Assembly: GCA_965149945.1 (NCBI GenBank) | Contig: CBCTTQ010000001.1 | Location: 60,637 to 124,636, forward strand | From: an uncultured Peptococcaceae bacterium | GTDB lineage: Bacteria > Bacillota > Dehalobacteriia > UBA4068 > UBA4997 | Length of the DNA stretch: 64,000 nucleotides | Reading direction: 5' to 3' | In this document: positions 8,541-61,839 of the stretch, in pieces | Layout of the letters: every line of letters begins with the position of its first letter | How positions within the stretch are numbered: position 1 is the first letter of the stretch | Notes under the pieces: generated by a model | Seen by the model: only the letters and a program-made list of their open reading frames with translations | Told to the model about the DNA's origin: nothing | The model's database searches: none | Translations under genes and position numbers: made by a program

Positions 8541-8566
8541 GCTCTTCTCCCTCCGTGTTTCCTGTT

Positions 8567-8629
8567 GTCCGCCCGCGGGCGGACAAAACTGTCTTATTTT
8601 ATTTTATACTGTTTACCGTGGATATGCAA
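8567..8629 (-). promoter_or_regulatory. putative glnS promoter plus 18-bp GC palindrome in the 5' UTR
   Basis: Minus strand: TTGCAT (8629-8624), 17-nt spacer, TAAAAT (8606-8601). Perfect palindrome GTCCGCCCGCGGGCGGAC at 8567-8584 sits between the predicted TSS and the RBS. Confidence 0.4.
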
Positions 8630-9178
8630 GTTTTTTCCCCATTTCCGCAGGAAATTTTCGGAATCCGTTTTTTACTTGCCGTTATTCCCTTCTCTCTTGA
8701 TGGTACCTGTCGTTATGCCGCTTGGTTTTTTTATCTGTTGTGGTTTCGTTTTTGGTGATTTCGCTGTTTTTGCCTAAAAACGTTATTTTTTTGCCGCCTT
8801 GTCAGGAAGAAAAAAGACAAGGAAAACAGCAACAAAGCGGGCTGCGGTCAGGCGGATCGAGACAAAAGACATCGAGCGCGGAAGAAAACACTCGAAAAAA
8901 AACCGAGACGGGAGTTACCAAAAAAGCGGTGTAATTGCCGAAAAAATAGGAAAAGAGAAAAACGTGAGAGGAATGGGGGAACGCGGCGAAAAAGACAACC
9001 GCGAAGCCGCCTGTATCGATTTTTTTCGCTTTTGCCCGTGATATGGGATGTGAAAAAAAGGCGCTTCTTCTTTCCTGTTACAGGATTAAAGAAACGCCGT
9101 CCGCGGGGGGCTCGTTGCCGTGATGCAGTCTGTCCGCTGCCGAAAACCCGTTGTTTTCAGGTGTTTTGAAAAGTGACG

Positions 9179-9526
9179 CTAGTTCGCTTCGTCCTTTAAT
9201 AAATATTTTTCAAAAGCTTTGTGAGGATCAAGGTGAACATTTTTAAAAAACAAGATCAGCCAAATCATGAAAGCCGGGACAGCGAAATAAGGTGTAAAAA
9301 AATAAGATAACACCGCGCCCAAAAACAAGACGCCGCTCCATGTAAAACATTGATTTCTCATATCACGAGCAATATAGGCCTTATCGTACAAAACCTGTTC
9401 TTCTTTCGGTAATGAATGAAAACCCGAGACAAATTCGGCCGTTCTCTCTTTCCCTATCGCGAAGAATACGCCGATCACCGCGAAAGGAATCACCAAAACC
9501 CCACATAGTAAAAATCCGATATTCAT
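9179..9526 (-). CDS. small membrane protein, DUF3784-like
   Basis: 115 aa from the ATG at 9526 (GGAGGA RBS). Two TM segments flank a ..SGFHSLPKEEQVLYDKAYIARDM.. segment typical of DUF3784. Last gene of the pot operon, in the position usually held by potD. Confidence 0.5.
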   Translation of the reverse strand: MNIGFLLCGVLVIPFAVIGVFFAIGKERTAEFVSGFHSLPKEEQVLYDKAYIARDMRNQCFTWSGVLFLGAVLSYFFTPYFAVPAFMIWLILFFKNVHLDPHKAFEKYLLKDEAN

Positions 9527-9536
9527 AAGATCCTCC

Positions 9537-10349
9537 TTAAACAGTCGGGTCTTTTTTGTTTTCATGGGAACCGCGCCAGTTGACCAGCGCCAAAAGCAGC
9601 AAAATCGTCAAAAACAGCAGCGTGGATACGGCGTTGACTTCCGGGCTGACCCCTTTTCTGGCCATGGCGTAAATGGAGATGGAAAGATTCTGTACTCCGT
9701 TGCCGGTGGTGAAATAACTGATGACAAAATCATCCAGCGATAAGGTAAAAGCAAAAATAGCGCCTGTGACAATGCCCGGCATCAGTTGGGGCAGTACTAC
9801 CCGCCGAAAAGCGGTAAAAGGCGAGGCGCCCAAATCCAGCGCCGCCTCATAGAGATTGGGTTTCAGCTGGTTCAGTTTCGGCAACACCGAAAGCGCCACA
9901 TAAGGCACACAGAAGGTGATATGAGCCAGCAGCAGACTGGTGAAGCCGAAGGGAATCCGCATGAAGATGAACAGCATCATCAGCGCTACCCCTGTCACAA
10001 TATCAGGATTCAGCACCGGCAGGTAGGTGGCGTTCATCACCAGCGCCTGAGGTGTTTTGCGCAGGCGGGCGATAGCCAGCGCCGCCGCCGTTCCGATGAC
10101 GGTGGAAATCAGCGCCGCCAGCACGGCGATGATTAATGTATAATAAAGGGCGCTCATGATTGCCTCGTTGGCAAACAGACTTTTGTACCAGTCCAGGGTA
10201 AAGCCGCCCCAGTTGCCGCGGTATTCGCTGGCGTTGAAGGAATAAATCATCAACACCAAAATGGGAGCATAGAGAAACAGAAAGATCAGAGAGAGATAAA
10301 AGAGTTTTCCCGCTTTCCACAGGCGTTTGCGGTGAACTTGTTTCATCAA
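9537..10349 (-). CDS. potC: spermidine/putrescine-type ABC transporter permease
   Basis: 270 aa, six TM, ABC-permease EAA-like loop (..LYEAALDLGASPFTAFRRVVLPQLMPGI..). Overlaps the potB stop by 4 nt. Confidence 0.85.
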   Translation of the reverse strand: MMKQVHRKRLWKAGKLFYLSLIFLFLYAPILVLMIYSFNASEYRGNWGGFTLDWYKSLFANEAIMSALYYTLIIAVLAALISTVIGTAAALAIARLRKTPQALVMNATYLPVLNPDIVTGVALMMLFIFMRIPFGFTSLLLAHITFCVPYVALSVLPKLNQLKPNLYEAALDLGASPFTAFRRVVLPQLMPGIVTGAIFAFTLSLDDFVISYFTTGNGVQNLSISIYAMARKGVSPEVNAVSTLLFLTILLLLALVNWRGSHENKKDPTV

Positions 10350-11173
10350 AACAGACCACCTCCTACGCTGTCCTTACTGCCCAAAATCTTCATGATGTAC
10401 ATGGAGACCAGAATCAGGATCATCATCAGGATAGAGATAGCGGAGCCGAAGTACCAGTTGCCCGACTCCAGAAACTGTTTTTCGATCAAATTCCCGATCA
10501 TGGTGTACTGGCCGCCGCCCAGCAGACGGGAAATGACGAACGTGGTCACCGCCGGCATAAAGACCATGGTGATACCGGTGATGACGCCGGGCAGACTTTT
10601 GGGGAAGATGATTTTGCGGAACACCTGAAAGCGGTTGGCGCCCAGATCTTCCGCCGCCTCGATCAGACTACGATCCATTTTCACCATCACGGAGTAAATA
10701 GGCAGAATCATGAAGGGCAGGAAGTTATAGATCAGCCCCACATAAACGGCTCCTGACGTGTAAAGCATTTGAATGGGTTCTACTCCAAACCAGCCCAGGA
10801 TGGTGTTGATGATGCCGTTTTTTTGCAGCAGCGTCATCCAGGCGTAGGTGCGCAGCAGCATATTCATCCACATGGGCAGGATACAGAGGAAGATCAGGTA
10901 GCGTTTGCGGACGAAATCGCTGGTGGTGAGGATGAGCGCCAGCGGATAGCCCAGCAGCAGACACCACAGCGTACAGAAAAAAGCAATCTTCAAGGAACGC
11001 CACAATACCCCCAGATAAATAGGATCAAAGAATTTCTTGTAATTTTCCAGGGTGAATCCTCCGTCAATGGTGGTGAGACTGTAATAAATGACAATGAACA
11101 AGGGGACAATGATGAAAATGACCATCCAGACCAGATAGGGAGTCGCCAGAAAGCGGTTCGTTCTTTTGTTCAA
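10346..11173 (-). CDS. potB: spermidine/putrescine-type ABC transporter permease
   Basis: 275 aa, PotB-like permease (..LIEAAEDLGANRFQVFRKIIFPKSLPGV..). Confidence 0.85.
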   Translation of the reverse strand: MNKRTNRFLATPYLVWMVIFIIVPLFIVIYYSLTTIDGGFTLENYKKFFDPIYLGVLWRSLKIAFFCTLWCLLLGYPLALILTTSDFVRKRYLIFLCILPMWMNMLLRTYAWMTLLQKNGIINTILGWFGVEPIQMLYTSGAVYVGLIYNFLPFMILPIYSVMVKMDRSLIEAAEDLGANRFQVFRKIIFPKSLPGVITGITMVFMPAVTTFVISRLLGGGQYTMIGNLIEKQFLESGNWYFGSAISILMMILILVSMYIMKILGSKDSVGGGLF

Positions 11174-11189
11174 TTTTCCGCCCCCCTTC

Positions 11190-12257
11190 CTAAGTCGTCG
11201 GGAACGGACGACTGTTCGACGGACGCATGATGTGAATGGAGTCCGGGTCGATGTTCATGCCGATTTCCGTTCCTTCCGGGGCGAATTTGATATTTTGGAT
11301 CAGCCAAGTGAAATGGTCGGCGGCATGGGATTCCACCATCATTTCGTAATGGACGCCGTAAAAGACTACGGATTTTACCGTGCCTCGCAGCATACCTTCT
11401 TCCGGCGGTACCATTACGATGTCCTCGGGGCGTACCACCACTTCCACAGGGGTGTTTTCCCCGAAGCCTTTGTCCACACAAACGAATTCCCGATCGGAAA
11501 ACCGCACCAGCAAATCGCGGATCATCGTGCCGGGCAGAATGTTGCTTTCGCCGATGAAGTCGGCGACAAAGGCGTTTTTCGGTTCATTATAAATATCCAC
11601 CGGGCTGCCTGTCTGCTGAATGACGCCGTGGTTCAGCACCACCACGGTATCGCTCATGGCCAGCGCTTCTTCTTGATCGTGGGTGACATAAAGGAAGGTA
11701 ATGCCCAGTCGCTGTTGCATCAGTTTCAGCTCCAGCTGCATGTCCTGGCGCATTTTTAAATCCAGCGCCGCCAAAGGTTCATCCAACAGCAGGATTTTCG
11801 GTTCGTTGACCAAGGCGCGAGCCATGGCGACCCGCTGCATCTGTCCCCCGGACAGAGAGTCGGGCCAGCGCCGTTCATACCCGTCCAAATTGACCAGATG
11901 GAGCGTTTCTTTGACCCGGCGGCGGATTTCGTCGGCGGGTACCTTGCGGATTTTTAAACCGAAGGCGATGTTGTCAAAGATATTCATATTGTCAAAGAGG
12001 GCATAGCGCTGGAAGACGGTGTTAAGGGGACGGCGGTGGGGCGGCACGTCGTTGATGCGTCTGCCGTCCAGGTAGATGCTGCCTTCGGTGGGCTGTTCAA
12101 AACCGGCGATCAGGCGCAGCAGGGTGGTTTTGCCGCAGCCGGAAGGTCCCAGCAGCGTCAGGAACGAGTTTTCTTTAATGGACAGATTGATGTTGCGGAG
12201 CACACGTTGCTCGCCAAAGTCTTTGCAGATGTTTTCCAGGCGGATAAGTTGGTTCAT
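11190..12257 (-). CDS. potA: spermidine/putrescine-type ABC transporter ATP-binding protein
   Basis: Walker [10 protein letters not shown], signature [15 protein letters not shown], Walker B ILLLDEPL, and a C-terminal TOBE-like domain. Start moved to the ATG at 12257, which has a GGAGG RBS (the track start at 12263 is TTG). Confidence 0.85.
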
Positions 12258-12273
12258 AGGCAATCCTCCGAGT

Positions 12274-14190
12274 TTAAGACAGCGTCATGCCGTCGGGCGG
12301 CATGACGGGGGAAACGGGAAAATCCGACCGCGGATCGACCGTCAGGACACAGGTTATCCGCCGGGGATCATCATACAGCGCCTGGGTGGTGATCCCGTCG
12401 CCGGTATTGGGGTTTTGGACGGAGTAGACGAGATCGCCCAGGAAGGCCGCTGAGAGGATCACGCAGATGGTCAGCGCCCGCCGGAAGCCCAGCCGTCGCA
12501 GACAGTTGTCCAGGCGGGGCGCCAGCAGATAAACGATAACCATGCCTCCCAGCCCGAAGATGAGCAGTCCTTCGGCGCAGATGCGGCCGTTGAGATTAAG
12601 GAAATATCCGGAATAGTCCCACCAATGCTGTCCCATGAAGGTTTCCAGCAGGAAGGAGGTGGTGTATTCCAAAATGCCGCACAGCACGACCGCCGCGAAA
12701 AATTCCAGCGTGGGGCGGCTGCGCAGCTTATTCAAAACCGTAAGGATGACGACGCCGCCGACTCCGTAGATGGGCAGCCAGGGACCGTACATGGTGCCCC
12801 GGTTAACAAAGATCCCGTCTTCTACCAGATGCAGGGAAACTTCCCAGAGCCAGCCGATGAAAGAAAAGATGAAAAACAGCAGAATCAACGAGCAAACGGA
12901 ATAGTGACGGATGTAGTGGGTGCTGACCAGCAGATTTTTGCTGTTTCGCAGAGGCAGCGGCGAAAGGCGTACCGGATAGGTCTGTCCGTCATGAGCAAAA
13001 CGACAGCGCTTTGCCAGCACAGCGGCTGCTTGTTCCCGCTGGTATTGATGTTCACTGTTGTCATAGTAGAGCGTGATCCCGAAAATTTCTCCCATGATCC
13101 AGCGCAGGCTGTAACGGCGGGGCTGATGTTCGGCGTGTTTGGGCGGTTGATAGCTGGCTTCCGGATAGGTTTTGGCCAGGATATCAGCGTCGGCGGTTTC
13201 GTAGAGATAGCGGTCGTTTAATAAATCGGCGTCAGGGATGCCTTTGGCTATGGCTTCTTGCCGCAGACGGACATAGTATTCGCAGAAAGTAGCTGCCTGA
13301 TAAGCGTTGGAAAAGAAGATTCCCGAAAGCCCCAGAGTAAACAAGTTCAGCGCGTTCCAGCCGATGAAGGTCAGTTCATAGAGAAAACATTCCCATTTGT
13401 GTCCGTTCATCATACGGCGGGACAGATTGATGGCCTGGCGGGGCGATAAGTCGGGATTTTCCGCCAGGATATAAGGTACCAAAAAGTAAGAATAAAACTT
13501 GATGACGCCGCCGATGATGGTGAGGAACCACAGGTATTGAAAGATGGTGGCTACCATCATGGCAACAGAGGCTTTGCACCATTTTTTGACGCCCCGCAGG
13601 AAAAAAATCCGCTGGACGGGGACTTTTTCGTAGGTGCGTCCTTCTAAAAAGATTCTGCGCAAAATCACTTGGTAGATGTTTTGAATCAGCATCCACCAGA
13701 GGAATACCAAAGAGAAGCTGATCGTGATCAAAATGATCAGCGTCACCTGAGAAGAGACAAAGACATTGTGGATCATTTCTGCCAAACGGACGAGGATGTG
13801 GCCGGAGGTGATATTGTTGATCAACTGGGCCAAGGTGCCGTTGCTGCGGGCCATCATGCCGTCGCGGTATTTTTCGGCGTCTTCTATCATTTGCTGGCGG
13901 CTGATCTCGTCGCTGGCAGCCAGGTTGCCCGCGGCGATATTACGCAGCACGTCCGCCAGCCCGTGGTTGCCGGGGCGCATTTCCTGGTCGACTTCCGGTT
14001 CGCCGTAAAAGACCGCGTTAACGGTGCGTTCTGTCATGGTTTCGTTGTTCTGCCCTTTGATCAGGGCGGCGGAGTCGGTGAACTCCGAACCCAGCAGGGC
14101 GGCGGCCAGACAAATGACCAAAAACAGCCGATAATGGCGTTTGATGGATTTTCTGGCTCTGCGTTTCATTTCAGATAGTGTTCCGGTCAA
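12274..14190 (-). CDS. large polytopic membrane protein; C-terminal third resembles the putative ABC-transporter type IV (CmpB-like, WDYS motif) family
   Basis: 638 aa, about 12 predicted TM segments. The C-terminal region ..[49 protein letters not shown].. matches the DUF1113/CmpB-type signature. The N-terminal half resembles DUF975-type membrane domains. The stop is 16 bp before potA. TTG start at 14190. Confidence 0.55.
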
Positions 14191-14364
14191 TTTCCCAAAT
14201 TCCTTTCTTTTTATCCCTTTTCCTGTTTTTCATAACGATGTTGTGATTCCTATACAAAAATAAATAGTTTCCGCGAGATTGTCCTCTTTTCGGACGGCAT
14301 GGCGGAGCGAAGGGCGCTTGATCTCCTTTTTGAGGGATCTTCTTCGTGTCTCTGATTGAAAAAA

Positions 14365-14406
14365 TGCCCGTCCCCGAGCGGTTTTGGTGGGGTAGTACGG
14401 GCGCCA
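14365..14406 (-). terminator. hairpin plus U-tract between alsT and the pot operon
   Basis: Minus-strand RNA GCCCGUACUACCCC-loop-GGGGACGGGC followed by AUUUUUUC. Sits downstream of the alsT stop but also downstream of a consensus promoter (see finding). Confidence 0.45.
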
Positions 14407-14418
14407 AATACCAATTTT

Positions 14419-14447
14419 ATTATAGCATACTTGTTAGGGGCTGACAA
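14419..14447 (-). promoter_or_regulatory. consensus-like sigma-A promoter (TTGTCA-17-TATAAT)
   Basis: Minus strand: TTGTCA at 14447-14442, 17-nt spacer, TATAAT at 14424-14419. Lies 20 bp after the alsT stop and about 230 nt before the 12274..14190 gene. Confidence 0.4.
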
Positions 14448-49176: not shown

Positions 49177-51117
49177 TTATTTTACCTGTCCGCCGGGAAG
49201 GATGCTGGCGGGGACTTCCAGCACTTCCATTTCCCCGTTATGAGAGGCTGCCAGAATCATACCCTGGGACTCGATGCCCCGCAGCTTGGCGGGTTTCAGG
49301 TTGGCCACCAGCACCAGCTGCTTGCCCACCATTTCTTCGGGGGTGTAACGCTGGGCAATGCCGCTTACTACGGTGCGGGTTTCGGCGCCTACCTGCACTT
49401 CCATTTTCAGCAGTTTATCGGCTTTTTTCACCTTTTCACATTGCAGTACTTTGCAGACGCGGAAATCGATTTTGGCAAAATCCTCAATGGTGATTTCCGG
49501 TTTGATTGGTTCGAATTGTTTGGCGGCTTCCGCTTTGGCTTTAGCGGCGTCTTCCTCCGCCCACAATTTCTCCATTTCCGTCAAGTCGATTCTGGGGAAG
49601 ATGGGGTCGCCGCGGTTTACTTGAATATCCGCGGGGAATCCGCCCCATTTCAGGCTGTCCCAGGTTTTCACCTCTTCATGACCGACCAGTCCCATCTGCG
49701 CCCAGACTTTGTCCGGGGTGGAGGGCATGGTAGGACCGATGAGCACGGTGATGAAACGGATCACTTCCGCCAGATTATAAAGAACTGTTTGAAGTTTTTC
49801 TGTTTCGCCGGCTTTATTTAATGCCCACGGCGCGCAGTCGTCGATGTATTTGTTGGCTTTGCTTACCAGTTTCCAAACTTCGGAGATGGCGCCCGCCACG
49901 TCCGCTTTGTCGATGTAGGCGGCCATATTGTCGGGGGTGGCTTCCGCCAGCGCTTTCAGTTCGGCGTCAAATTCCGTTTCTGTGCCGGGGGCGGCGACAC
50001 GACCGCCACAGAATTTCTGAATCATGGAAGTGGTGCGGGAGATCAAATTGCCATAGTCATTGGCAAGATCGGTGTTAATGCGATTTACCAGAGCTTCTTC
50101 CGAATAAACGGCGTCCATGCCGTAGGCCATTTCTCGCAGCAGGAAGAAGCGAATGGCGTCCACGCCGTAGCGTTCTGTCAAAATCTTCGGGTCGACTACA
50201 TTGCCTTTGGATTTGCTCATCTTGCCGTCACTCATCAACAGCCAGCCGTGCGCCACTACTTTTTTCGGCAGCGGGATATCCATCGCCATTAGCATAATGG
50301 GCCAGATGATAGAATGGAAGCGAATGATGTCTTTGGCCATCAGGTGAATGTCGGCGGGCCAGTAAGTTTGATACAATTGATCGTGGTCGGTGCCGTATCC
50401 CAGGGCGGAGATGTAGTTGATCAGGGCGTCGAACCAAACATAGACCACATGTTTGTGGTCAAAGGGGACTTTGATGCCCCAGTCGAAGGTAGTACGGCTG
50501 ACGCATAAATCGTCCAGTCCTTGTTTGACAAAGTTGATCATCTCATTGCGGCGGGATTCCGGTTGGATGAAGTCGGGGTGGCTTTCGATGAATTCCAGCC
50601 AGCGGTCGGCGTATTTGCTCATTTTGAAGAAATAACTTTCTTCCTGGGTCAGTTCCACCGGGCGTCCGCAGTCGGGGCAGGTGTGGCCTTCGCCCAGCTG
50701 CCGCTCGGTGAAAAAGGTTTCGCAGGGAGTGCAGTACCAGCCGGAATATTGGGACTTGTAGATATCTCCCTGATCGTAAACTTTTTGGAACAGATTTTGC
50801 ACCACTTCTTCATGACGTCGGTCGGTGGTGCGGATGAAGTCGCTGTATTCAATGTTCATCAATTTCCAGAGATCTTTGACGCCGGAGACAATTTCGTCCA
50901 CAAACTCTTTGGGGGTTTTGCCGGCTTCGGCGGCTTTGCGTTGAATTTTCTGACCGTGTTCGTCGGTGCCGGTGAGAAAATAGGCGTCATAGCCTTGGAG
51001 TTTTTTGAAACGGGTGATGGTATCGGCAGCCACGGTGGTATAAGCATGGCCGATGTGCAAATTATCACTGGGGTAATAGATGGGGGTTGTGATATAGAAT
51101 TTCTTTCTTTCTGTCAT
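49177..51117 (-). CDS. metG: methionine--tRNA ligase
   Basis: 646 aa. HIGH (..YYPSDNLHIGHAYTTV..), KMSKS, Zn-knuckle CPDCGRP, and a C-terminal tRNA-binding (EMAP-like) domain. GGAGGAA RBS. Confidence 0.95.
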   Translation of the reverse strand: MTERKKFYITTPIYYPSDNLHIGHAYTTVAADTITRFKKLQGYDAYFLTGTDEHGQKIQRKAAEAGKTPKEFVDEIVSGVKDLWKLMNIEYSDFIRTTDRRHEEVVQNLFQKVYDQGDIYKSQYSGWYCTPCETFFTERQLGEGHTCPDCGRPVELTQEESYFFKMSKYADRWLEFIESHPDFIQPESRRNEMINFVKQGLDDLCVSRTTFDWGIKVPFDHKHVVYVWFDALINYISALGYGTDHDQLYQTYWPADIHLMAKDIIRFHSIIWPIMLMAMDIPLPKKVVAHGWLLMSDGKMSKSKGNVVDPKILTERYGVDAIRFFLLREMAYGMDAVYSEEALVNRINTDLANDYGNLISRTTSMIQKFCGGRVAAPGTETEFDAELKALAEATPDNMAAYIDKADVAGAISEVWKLVSKANKYIDDCAPWALNKAGETEKLQTVLYNLAEVIRFITVLIGPTMPSTPDKVWAQMGLVGHEEVKTWDSLKWGGFPADIQVNRGDPIFPRIDLTEMEKLWAEEDAAKAKAEAAKQFEPIKPEITIEDFAKIDFRVCKVLQCEKVKKADKLLKMEVQVGAETRTVVSGIAQRYTPEEMVGKQLVLVANLKPAKLRGIESQGMILAASHNGEMEVLEVPASILPGGQVK

Positions 51118-51415
51118 AACAGTTCCTCCTTCTGTTGGTTATCCGCGGGGTGAGCGGCAAAAAAAAACGCCCCTCTCTAGGGACGATGAAATCGTGGTAC
51201 CACCCTGGTTCGCTTTTGAGAAAGCCTCAGCGGATTGAAGTCCTCGGCGAATAACGGCGCCTGCCGTCCGCGGTTACGACCCCTGGGCGGGGATTCGCCG
51301 CGACCGCTCCCGAGCCATGTTCCCCTTTTTGTCCGCGGGAGGTTTCAGCTCCTCTCCCTCTCTGTAGCGGCACGCCAAAGGTACTCATCTCGTTCGCTGC
51401 GTTTTAGCATAATCT
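51118..51415 (-). promoter_or_regulatory. T-box riboswitch leader of metG (Met specifier)
   Basis: Minus-strand RNA carries the T-box motif AGGGUGGUACCACG (plus 51208-51193), followed by terminator CGUCCC-uagaga-GGGGCG and a U9 run. Stem I region has GA/AGUA elements and an AUG codon (..GGGGAACAUGGCU..). Confidence 0.8.
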
Positions 51416-61473: not shown

Positions 61474-61550
61474 TGGTACGCCAGGCGGGATTCGAACCCA
61501 CGACCTTTTGGTTCGTAGCCAAACACTCTATCCAGCTGAGCTACTGGCGC
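61474..61550 (-). tRNA. tRNA-Arg (anticodon ACG)
   Basis: Minus-strand cloverleaf GCGCCAGUAGCUCAGCUGGAUAGAGUGUUUGGCUACGAACCAAA..GGGUUCGAAUCCCGCCUGGCGUACCA with encoded CCA. Anticodon loop CUACGAA. Confidence 0.85.
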
Positions 61551-61615
61551 GCGATACTCTGTTTATAAGGATTCGCTGCTTTTGGAGAAATTCCTGCCTA
61601 AACAGAGTATTTTTT

Positions 61616-61710
61616 TGGCGGAGAGCAAGGGATTCGAACCCTCGATACAGCTTTTGAACCGTATACTCGCTTAGCAGGCGAGCGCCTTCGACCGACTCGG
61701 CCAACTCTCC
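61616..61710 (-). tRNA. tRNA-Ser (anticodon GCU), type II with long variable arm
   Basis: GGAGAGUUGGCCGAGUCGGUCGAAGGCGCUCGCCUGCUAAGCGAG..GGGUUCGAAUCCCUUGCUCUCCGCCA. Anticodon loop CUGCUAA. Confidence 0.85.
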
Positions 61711-61750
61711 ATGTTTAAAATCCTCTCTGCTGTGCCGCGCCAAAACTGTT

Positions 61751-61839
61751 TGGCGGAGAGGATGGGATTCGAACCCATGACACATTACTGTGCGACGGTT
61801 TTCAAGACCGCTCCGTTATGACCACTTCGGTACCTCTCC
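61751..61839 (-). tRNA. tRNA-Ser (anticodon UGA), type II
   Basis: GGAGAGGUACCGAAGUGGUCAUAACGGAGCGGUCUUGAAAACCGUC..AUGGGUUCGAAUCCCAUCCUCUCCGCCA. Anticodon loop CUUGAAA. Confidence 0.85.

Follow-up and report, generated by a model that had tools for sequence, protein, structure and literature searches.

We analysed a group of five genes on the minus strand of a 64-kb stretch of DNA from an uncultured Peptococcaceae bacterium; this whole stretch is called the window below. In the order of transcription, the genes encode a large membrane protein with a DUF975 and an ABC_trans_CmpB domain (the fusion), the ATP-binding cassette (ABC) transporter proteins PotA, PotB and PotC, and a small membrane protein of the DUF3784 family. 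They lie between alsT and a 278-nucleotide (nt) leader on one side and a 640-nt gap and glnS on the other. We consider it likely that the locus encodes an ordinary PotABC importer from which potD has gone, that the flanking genes are unrelated to it and that the binding protein is encoded elsewhere in the genome. The region appears to be a mosaic transcription unit peculiar to this lineage, and its five genes do not appear to form a dedicated system.

At the core of the locus would be the genes of a normal PotABC (spermidine/putrescine) system, a type I ABC importer, whose usual fourth gene, potD, seems to have been lost from the locus. A foreign DUF3784 cassette would sit in its place, directly after potC. 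Because the importer appears to be still in use, its substrate would most likely be supplied by a binding protein of the PotD/PotF type whose gene lies at another site of the genome.

Absence of potD from the window

The nearest potABC loci were taken from the 80 closest PotC-encoding metagenome contigs found with tblastn, which are at most 61% identical and represent approximately 47 lineages at 90% PotC identity. Seventy-five of these contigs have enough sequence downstream of potC to be informative, and potD follows directly after potC in 73 of them. The two exceptions are L129 and L137. In L129 the open reading frame (ORF) after potC (2401–2769) resembles, by eye, a signal peptide joined to the C-terminal end of a P-type ATPase; such a chimera suggests a rearrangement or a misassembly.

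A cognate PotD-type binding protein is not encoded with the transporter at the locus in the window. When the window was searched by tblastn with E. coli PotD and with the genes that follow potC in eight of the nearest potABC relatives (one of them confirmed as SBP_bac_8/SBP_bac_6), no match had an E-value better than 0.4. A preliminary description of this DNA had reported tightly linked potABC genes with no potD after potC, and the search confirms it. A remnant of potD was detected by tblastn neither in the 640-nt gap nor in the gaps of the same-genus contigs L163 and L164, and the flanks of these two contigs contain no potD; the contigs of relatives covered by the potD search are up to 24 kb long. 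Among the ORFs of the window, none of the large ones carries a lipoprotein signal, and the sole hit is an implausible ORF of 130 amino acids.

A fusion protein with 95% identity led to the same-genus contigs. L163 and L164 keep alsT, the fusion gene, potA, potB, potC and the DUF3784 gene, with glnS following in L164, and the contigs L161 and L165 end inside potA. The order fusion–potABC–DUF3784 without potD is kept in three same-genus contigs.

In E. coli, PotABC receives spermidine from PotD, which also stimulates the ATPase of the transporter (PMC11414716). Binding-protein genes located apart from the transporter genes have been described as a common arrangement (PMC3223731). An example of the polyamine type is RPA2014 of R. 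palustris, with potH, potI and an ATPase gene located elsewhere (PMC3223731, citing Thomas 2010).

Conservation of PotABC

PotA, PotB and PotC are 49%, 42% and 41% identical to the respective E. coli proteins, which are also the names of their best NCBIfam models. PotA combines an ABC ATPase with a TOBE-type regulatory domain and the expected ATP-site residues, and PotB and PotC are two type I permeases orthologous to their namesakes. Both permeases belong to BPD_transp_1, and an EcfT-type T-component was not found among the five genes.

We mapped the residues known from the PotD–PotABC structures of E. coli (PMC11414716) onto the three proteins. PotA keeps the ATP-site and catalytic residues that match E. 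coli Phe27, Thr57, Arg143, Ser149, Asp172 and Glu173, and PotC keeps the spermidine-contacting aspartate (E. coli Asp198). The basic residue of the PotC scoop loop (E. coli Lys223) is an arginine here, as it is in 53 of 63 relatives. At the positions of the E. coli PotB gate residues Tyr223 and Asp226, the protein has valine and arginine; the PotD-linked relatives of this clade carry Ile, Ala, Val or Phe at the first of these positions and Lys or Arg at the second. We also scored all columns for which PotD-linked relatives show a conservation of 95% or more. PotB keeps 51 of 52 and PotC 56 of 58 (97–98%), compared with a rate of approximately 98% for the relatives themselves. At conserved and mechanistic residues, PotABC thus looks indistinguishable from its PotD-linked relatives.

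Between the window and the same-genus strains, the ratio of nonsynonymous to synonymous divergence (dN/dS) is 0.015–0.029 for potA, 0.017–0.075 for potB and 0.08 for potC, with an overall range of 0.015–0.085. The synonymous divergence (dS) in these comparisons reaches 0.55, and each pot gene has accumulated 37–96 synonymous changes between the window and L163, the pair that has diverged most. Because of this strong purifying selection and the kept conserved residues, the importer can be taken to be still working, and it looks like the ordinary binding-protein-dependent type.

The flanking membrane-protein genes

The preliminary description had presented the transporter genes as bracketed by two membrane proteins, the first of them a 638-residue protein with a DUF975-like N-terminus and a CmpB-like C-terminus containing a WDYS motif, whose stop lies 16 bp before potA. 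Pfam matches and coordinates agree with this account. DUF975 covers residues 148–312 (83.3 bits, threshold 34.8) and ABC_trans_CmpB (PF06541) covers residues 437–591 (151.3 bits, threshold 25.9), and the motif WWDYSG is invariant across 23 fusion homologues. More than 2000 homologues have the same two-domain architecture, and the sources name them only 'DUF975 family protein'. The closest relative outside the genus is 53% identical, identities among GTDB representative genomes are at most 51%, and the G+C content at third codon positions (GC3) of the gene is 0.70.

A tie between the flanking genes and the transporter, which that description implied, does not hold in other genomes. We retrieved relatives of the fusion with 10-kb flanks from 80 other genomes (Clostridia, Erysipelotrichia and a few spirochaetes; loci L001–L080). 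Co-occurrence of the fusion with potABC in related genomes, a check that had been proposed, was seen in none: potB or potC was not present within 10 kb of a fusion homologue in any of the 80, nor was any other ABC transporter consistently near the homologues at these loci. Their commonest neighbour is a membrane-anchored calcineurin-like phosphoesterase (Metallophos) of approximately 400 residues, which is encoded next to the fusion on the same strand at 38 of the 80 loci (e.g., L003, 11802–12998). A Metallophos neighbour gene was not found in the window. This partnership makes the Pfam label 'putative ABC-transporter type IV' doubtful.

Structure prediction, also proposed in the preliminary description, yields an all-helical AlphaFold model with a disordered tail (residues 588–631) and a mean predicted local distance difference test score (pLDDT) of 69. 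The model shows no binding-protein fold, and PDB searches by sequence or fold gave no meaningful relative, with all Foldseek E-values above 1. In the literature on DUF975, PF06541 and DUF3784 we found passing mentions only and no tested function. The fusion gene appears to be a native gene and not a transporter component; from its distribution, it would be a widespread stand-alone membrane-protein gene that happens to precede potA in this genus.

A CmpB domain is also found near pot genes in a second, isolated case. In the lineage of L092 (12699–14837; also L094, L096–L100, L117 and L121), potD is followed by DUF4867, a stand-alone CmpB-domain protein of 318 residues and a phosphopantetheinyl transferase.

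The last gene of the group was described beforehand as encoding a DUF3784-like membrane protein of 115 residues, and its Pfam match to DUF3784 (58.4 bits, threshold 28.1) is in agreement. Its composition (39.7% G+C; GC3 of 44%) differs from that of potABC and the fusion gene, which have a GC3 of 65–71%. Homologues that are 70–80% identical occur in unrelated Firmicutes (Eubacterium, Ruminococcus, Lachnospiraceae and Faecalibacillus), and these are far closer than the nearest PotC (61%) or fusion protein (53%) from outside the genus. The islands that hold them contain transposases, Fic, HSP20 and AbiE genes and runs of tiny ORFs, without transporters. The nucleotide similarity to these relatives is confined to the ORF and its ribosome-binding site and starts at the potC stop codon. 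None of the 75 related potABC loci has a DUF3784 gene. With a dN/dS of 0.22 relative to L163, the gene is less constrained than potABC. Repeats that bracket the gene block were not found, and neither was a solved structure related to DUF3784.

The DUF3784 gene thus looks like a foreign cassette that was acquired horizontally and recently, and the simplest history would be that a small mobile cassette landed at the former position of potD. This subfamily of DUF3784 behaves as a mobile accessory gene.

Layout of the locus and transcription

The coordinates of the locus are collected in Table 1. The start of potC is probably the ATG at 10346. The ribosome-binding sites of the locus are good; that of potA (GGAGG) lies 7 nt upstream of the ATG. 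Because only 16 nt separate the TAA of the fusion gene from the potA ATG and the other junctions are equally tight (spacings of at most 16 nt), all five genes are probably transcribed together from the promoter in front of the fusion gene. The three clustered terminator-like sites downstream of the DUF3784 gene are the probable end of the transcription unit. They lie in the gap before glnS (8541–9178), which is pyrimidine-rich on the coding strand and variable between strains, with an indel of approximately 175 nt in L164. A comparison of this gap with Rfam at E ≤ 1 gave no match beyond chance level.

Table 1. Features of the alsT–glnS region, in window coordinates
Feature	Position	Strand	Evidence and remarks
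alsT, sodium:alanine symporter	15871–14468	minus	Pfam Na_Ala_symp, E = 7.5e-137; same neighbour in L161, L163 and L164
Sigma-70-type promoter, TTGTCA-17-TATAAT with extended -10 TG	14447–14419	minus	11/12 match
Terminator-like hairpin, followed by A and six U	14402–14366; A and U-tract 14365–14359	minus	Terminator scan; fold -16.6 kcal/mol
DUF975+ABC_trans_CmpB fusion	12274–14190	minus	Pfam; TTG at 14190 gives 638 aa, alternative ATG at 14169 gives 631 aa
GC-rich 9-bp hairpin in the last 11 codons of the fusion ORF	12306–12284	minus	Compensatory changes; fold z = -2.5
potA, ABC ATPase with TOBE_2 regulatory domain	ATG 12257 to 11190	minus	Pfam ABC_tran and TOBE_2; NCBIfam
potB, type I importer permease	11173–10346	minus	BPD_transp_1; PotB is best NCBIfam match
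potC, type I importer permease	10349–9537	minus	BPD_transp_1; PotC is best NCBIfam match
DUF3784 small membrane protein, 115 aa	ATG 9526 to 9179	minus	Pfam; AAGGAGG ribosome-binding site
Three clustered terminator-like sites in T-rich gap	8907–8829	minus	Terminator scan
glnS	8540–6858	minus	Downstream of the 640-nt gap

The promoter and hairpin of the leader

The consensus promoter of the preliminary description was recovered at the same position. Twenty nt separate it from the alsT stop codon, and transcription is predicted to start near 14412. The window contains seven sites of this quality, compared with 0.41 expected from shuffles, and when this intergenic region was shuffled 5000 times, such a promoter arose in only 7 cases. 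All five strains, L163 included, have the same two hexamers and the same TG. Two other sites with 11 of 12 matches are located just upstream of a T-box leader and of tRNA genes, so sites of this kind are good predictors in this genome, and the promoter is very probably real. The T-box leader (51176–51406, minus) stands before an ORF that by eye is an apparent methionyl-tRNA synthetase (49177–51117), and the three tRNA genes lie at 61477–61839 (minus).

The promoter is followed at once by a hairpin and U-tract, as had been noted; the distance from the end of the U-tract to the TTG start of the fusion gene, previously given as about 170 nt, is 169 nt. With a GC-rich stem-loop and a U-tract on the transcribed strand, the element has the make-up of an intrinsic terminator. 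Its loop has 13 nt, the stem contains an internal loop, and the hairpin does not exceed shuffled sequence in stability (z = -0.6). Other copies of it were not found in the window. The hairpin is identical in L161, L164 and L165, and these strains are 99% identical here. L163 is nearly identical from the 3' end of alsT through the promoter to approximately +12; the following ~130 nt, including the hairpin, are replaced by ~215 nt that are unalignable and contain no sense-strand terminator, and the last 100 nt before the fusion start align again. Since L163 keeps the promoter without the hairpin, the hairpin would be dispensable in this close relative.

Two interpretations of the leader were offered in the preliminary description: read-through of an alsT terminator from the promoter, or an attenuator or small RNA. 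The first fits best. The hairpin is best read as the alsT terminator, located downstream of an embedded promoter. In this reading the promoter lies past the alsT stop codon but ahead of the terminator of that gene, and its transcripts would read through the hairpin and U-tract, which would probably lower the output constitutively; the hairpin would be at most a constitutive brake.

We regard it as improbable that the promoter and hairpin form a ligand- or protein-controlled attenuator, a riboswitch or a stand-alone small RNA of approximately 50 nt. A near-consensus promoter with a hairpin and six-U tract within 10 nt would suit such an element, and the arrangement is identical in four strains, but these strains are so similar here that the sharing is uninformative. 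The ~100 nt of start-proximal leader conserved in L163 also speak for an element of this kind, but in that strain the promoter is intact and the hairpin segment is the part that is lost. The stem starts after only about 10 nt, too few to accommodate a ligand-sensing element. Neither the minimum-energy nor the centroid prediction contains a competing antiterminator fold, and Rfam gave chance-level matches only, both on the window at the gathering threshold and on the leader at E = 10. A conserved sensor with an antiterminator, kept across relatives, was thus not observed.

In the start-proximal leader we also looked for a second promoter or an upstream ORF and rejected both: convincing hexamers are lacking, and the short ORF present is not conserved in L163.

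The hairpin at the fusion–potA junction

The only unexpected detail of the locus is a hairpin in the last codons of the fusion ORF. Its end is 7 nt away from the fusion TAA and 26 nt away from the potA ATG, and its fold is more stable than shuffled sequence (z = -2.5). The predicted fold pairs the conserved GAUUUUCC (12317–12324) with the potA ribosome-binding site (12265–12269). Further copies of the hairpin were not found between 8400 and 14600.

The hairpin is located in the tail of the fusion protein. The last ~45 residues, for which the AlphaFold model shows disorder, lack conservation across homologues and form the most divergent stretch between strains (37 differences per 100 nt). Two alleles of the tail exist, with greatly different peptide sequences. 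Between them, the hairpin differs by three pair-preserving double changes (U-A to C-G, A-U to G-C and U-A to C-G) and by one change at the loop-closing pair. The simulated probability of such a pair-preserving outcome is 0.003–0.03, depending on the substitution model. With two alleles only, the compensatory conservation of the hairpin is suggestive, not proven. The hairpin could be a former terminator of the fusion gene, an mRNA-stabilizing stem or part of a translational coupling device. In the last case, which is speculative, the hairpin and the 16-nt gap may tie the translation of potA to that of the fusion ORF.

Divergence along the locus is mosaic. Relative to L164, dS is 0.016 for alsT, 0.14 for the fusion gene, 0.165 for potA and 0.02 for potB. 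Relative to L163, it is 0.39–0.55 for potABC and only 0.15 for alsT and the fusion gene. Such a pattern points to frequent recombination among strains. We considered the divergent 3' tail of the fusion gene as the insertion junction of potABC and rejected this reading as unproven: tails are variable in all homologues, and the mosaic divergence fits strain recombination.

Discussion

Some observations weigh against an ordinary PotABC importer with a binding protein encoded elsewhere. All three Pot proteins score below the curated cut-offs of their best NCBIfam (equivalog) models; for PotA, the match to MMSYN1_0197 reaches 524 bits, compared with a cut-off of 550. Because of these scores, the proteins can be taken as an importer of the PotABC kind whose presumed substrate, spermidine or putrescine, is not certain. 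PotA keeps 116 of 125 conserved columns (93%), compared with an average of 98% in its relatives. The order without potD seems to have been stable for some time, as judged from the dS of 0.4–0.55 between strains. Gene packing in the group is tight enough for co-expression of all five, and a functional link of the transporter with the flanking genes is conceivable. Finally, the potD search covered 64 kb of this genome and short related contigs, and the partner binding protein is inferred.

A rival explanation would be a new importer architecture, in which PotABC works without a soluble binding protein or in which the fusion or the DUF3784 protein serves as a membrane-embedded capture or accessory subunit. 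The preliminary description had called such a solute-binding-protein-independent importer of polyamine type unusual, and our analysis does not indicate one. The lack of potD within 64 kb, the strong selection on potABC in spite of it, and the gaps of at most 16 nt between genes whose order is kept in the genus would all agree with such an architecture. So would the junction hairpin, which suggests coupled expression, and the CmpB-domain gene two genes after potD in one other lineage. The association is absent elsewhere, however, since it occurs at none of the 80 fusion loci and none of the 75 potABC loci, and the DUF3784 gene is a recent arrival whose relatives reside in mobile islands without transporters. 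The predicted all-helical fusion protein lacks the alpha/beta fold of a binding protein, and PotB and PotC are typical type I permeases that keep the residues of PotD-linked relatives, including the basic residue of the scoop loop. The binding-protein-free ABC importers that are known, those of the energy-coupling factor (ECF) type, use a different T-component. We therefore consider a new architecture very unlikely. The same low probability applies to a type I importer that is kept without any PotD, either unaided or helped by the co-transcribed fusion protein, with potA translation coupled through the junction hairpin.

Least likely of all, potABC could be a decaying remnant, non-functional after the loss of potD, as the foreign gene and the variable non-coding gap in place of potD might suggest; the ORFs are, however, intact in at least three diverged strains, their low dN/dS is accompanied by many synonymous changes per gene, the catalytic and conserved residues are kept and the ribosome-binding sites are good.

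An ordinary PotABC importer supplied by a distant binding-protein gene thus remains the preferred explanation. The locus then shows that the binding-protein gene of a standard operon can give way to a small cassette of horizontal origin while the operon is maintained, and it cautions against deducing a function from close gene spacing when only one genome is considered. Should the complete genome prove to contain no protein of the PotD/PotF type, the locus would be a highly surprising case of a type I ABC importer that occurs in nature and works without a binding protein.

Comparison with known systems

Intercistronic stem-loops set differential expression within operons, an example being the repetitive extragenic palindromic (REP) hairpin between malE and malF. 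The hairpin at the fusion–potA junction resembles it as a stable GC-rich stem between cistrons without a proper U-tract, in this case kept by compensatory changes. Unlike the REP hairpin, it is part of the upstream ORF, at its 3' end, and not of a spacer, and it is not repeated.

ECF transporters are the known binding-protein-free ABC importers and have membrane-embedded S-components. The present locus shares with them the small membrane proteins encoded beside ABC transporter genes. However, its permeases are of the BPD_transp_1 and not the EcfT type, and none of the other genomes shows a link between the transporter and the membrane proteins that flank it here.

The PotABC system of Mycoplasma/JCVI-syn (MMSYN1_0195 to MMSYN1_0197) is similar in that MMSYN1_0197 is the best NCBIfam match of PotA. 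Its PotC is fused to a binding domain (1021 model positions), whereas the PotC described here has 270 residues and matches model positions 6–245 only.

Orphan systems of the R. palustris RPA2014 type (PMC3223731, citing Thomas 2010) also have clustered permease and ATPase genes without a binding-protein gene and are of polyamine type. The difference is that only the transporter half is visible in our case.

Compared with E. coli PotABCD (PMC11414716), the locus has no potD after potC, and the PotB gate residues and the NCBIfam scores below cut-off set it apart. What it shares with the E. coli system is the A-B-C gene order, the TOBE-type domain of PotA, the ATP-site residues, the PotC aspartate equivalent to Asp198 and a basic residue in the scoop loop.

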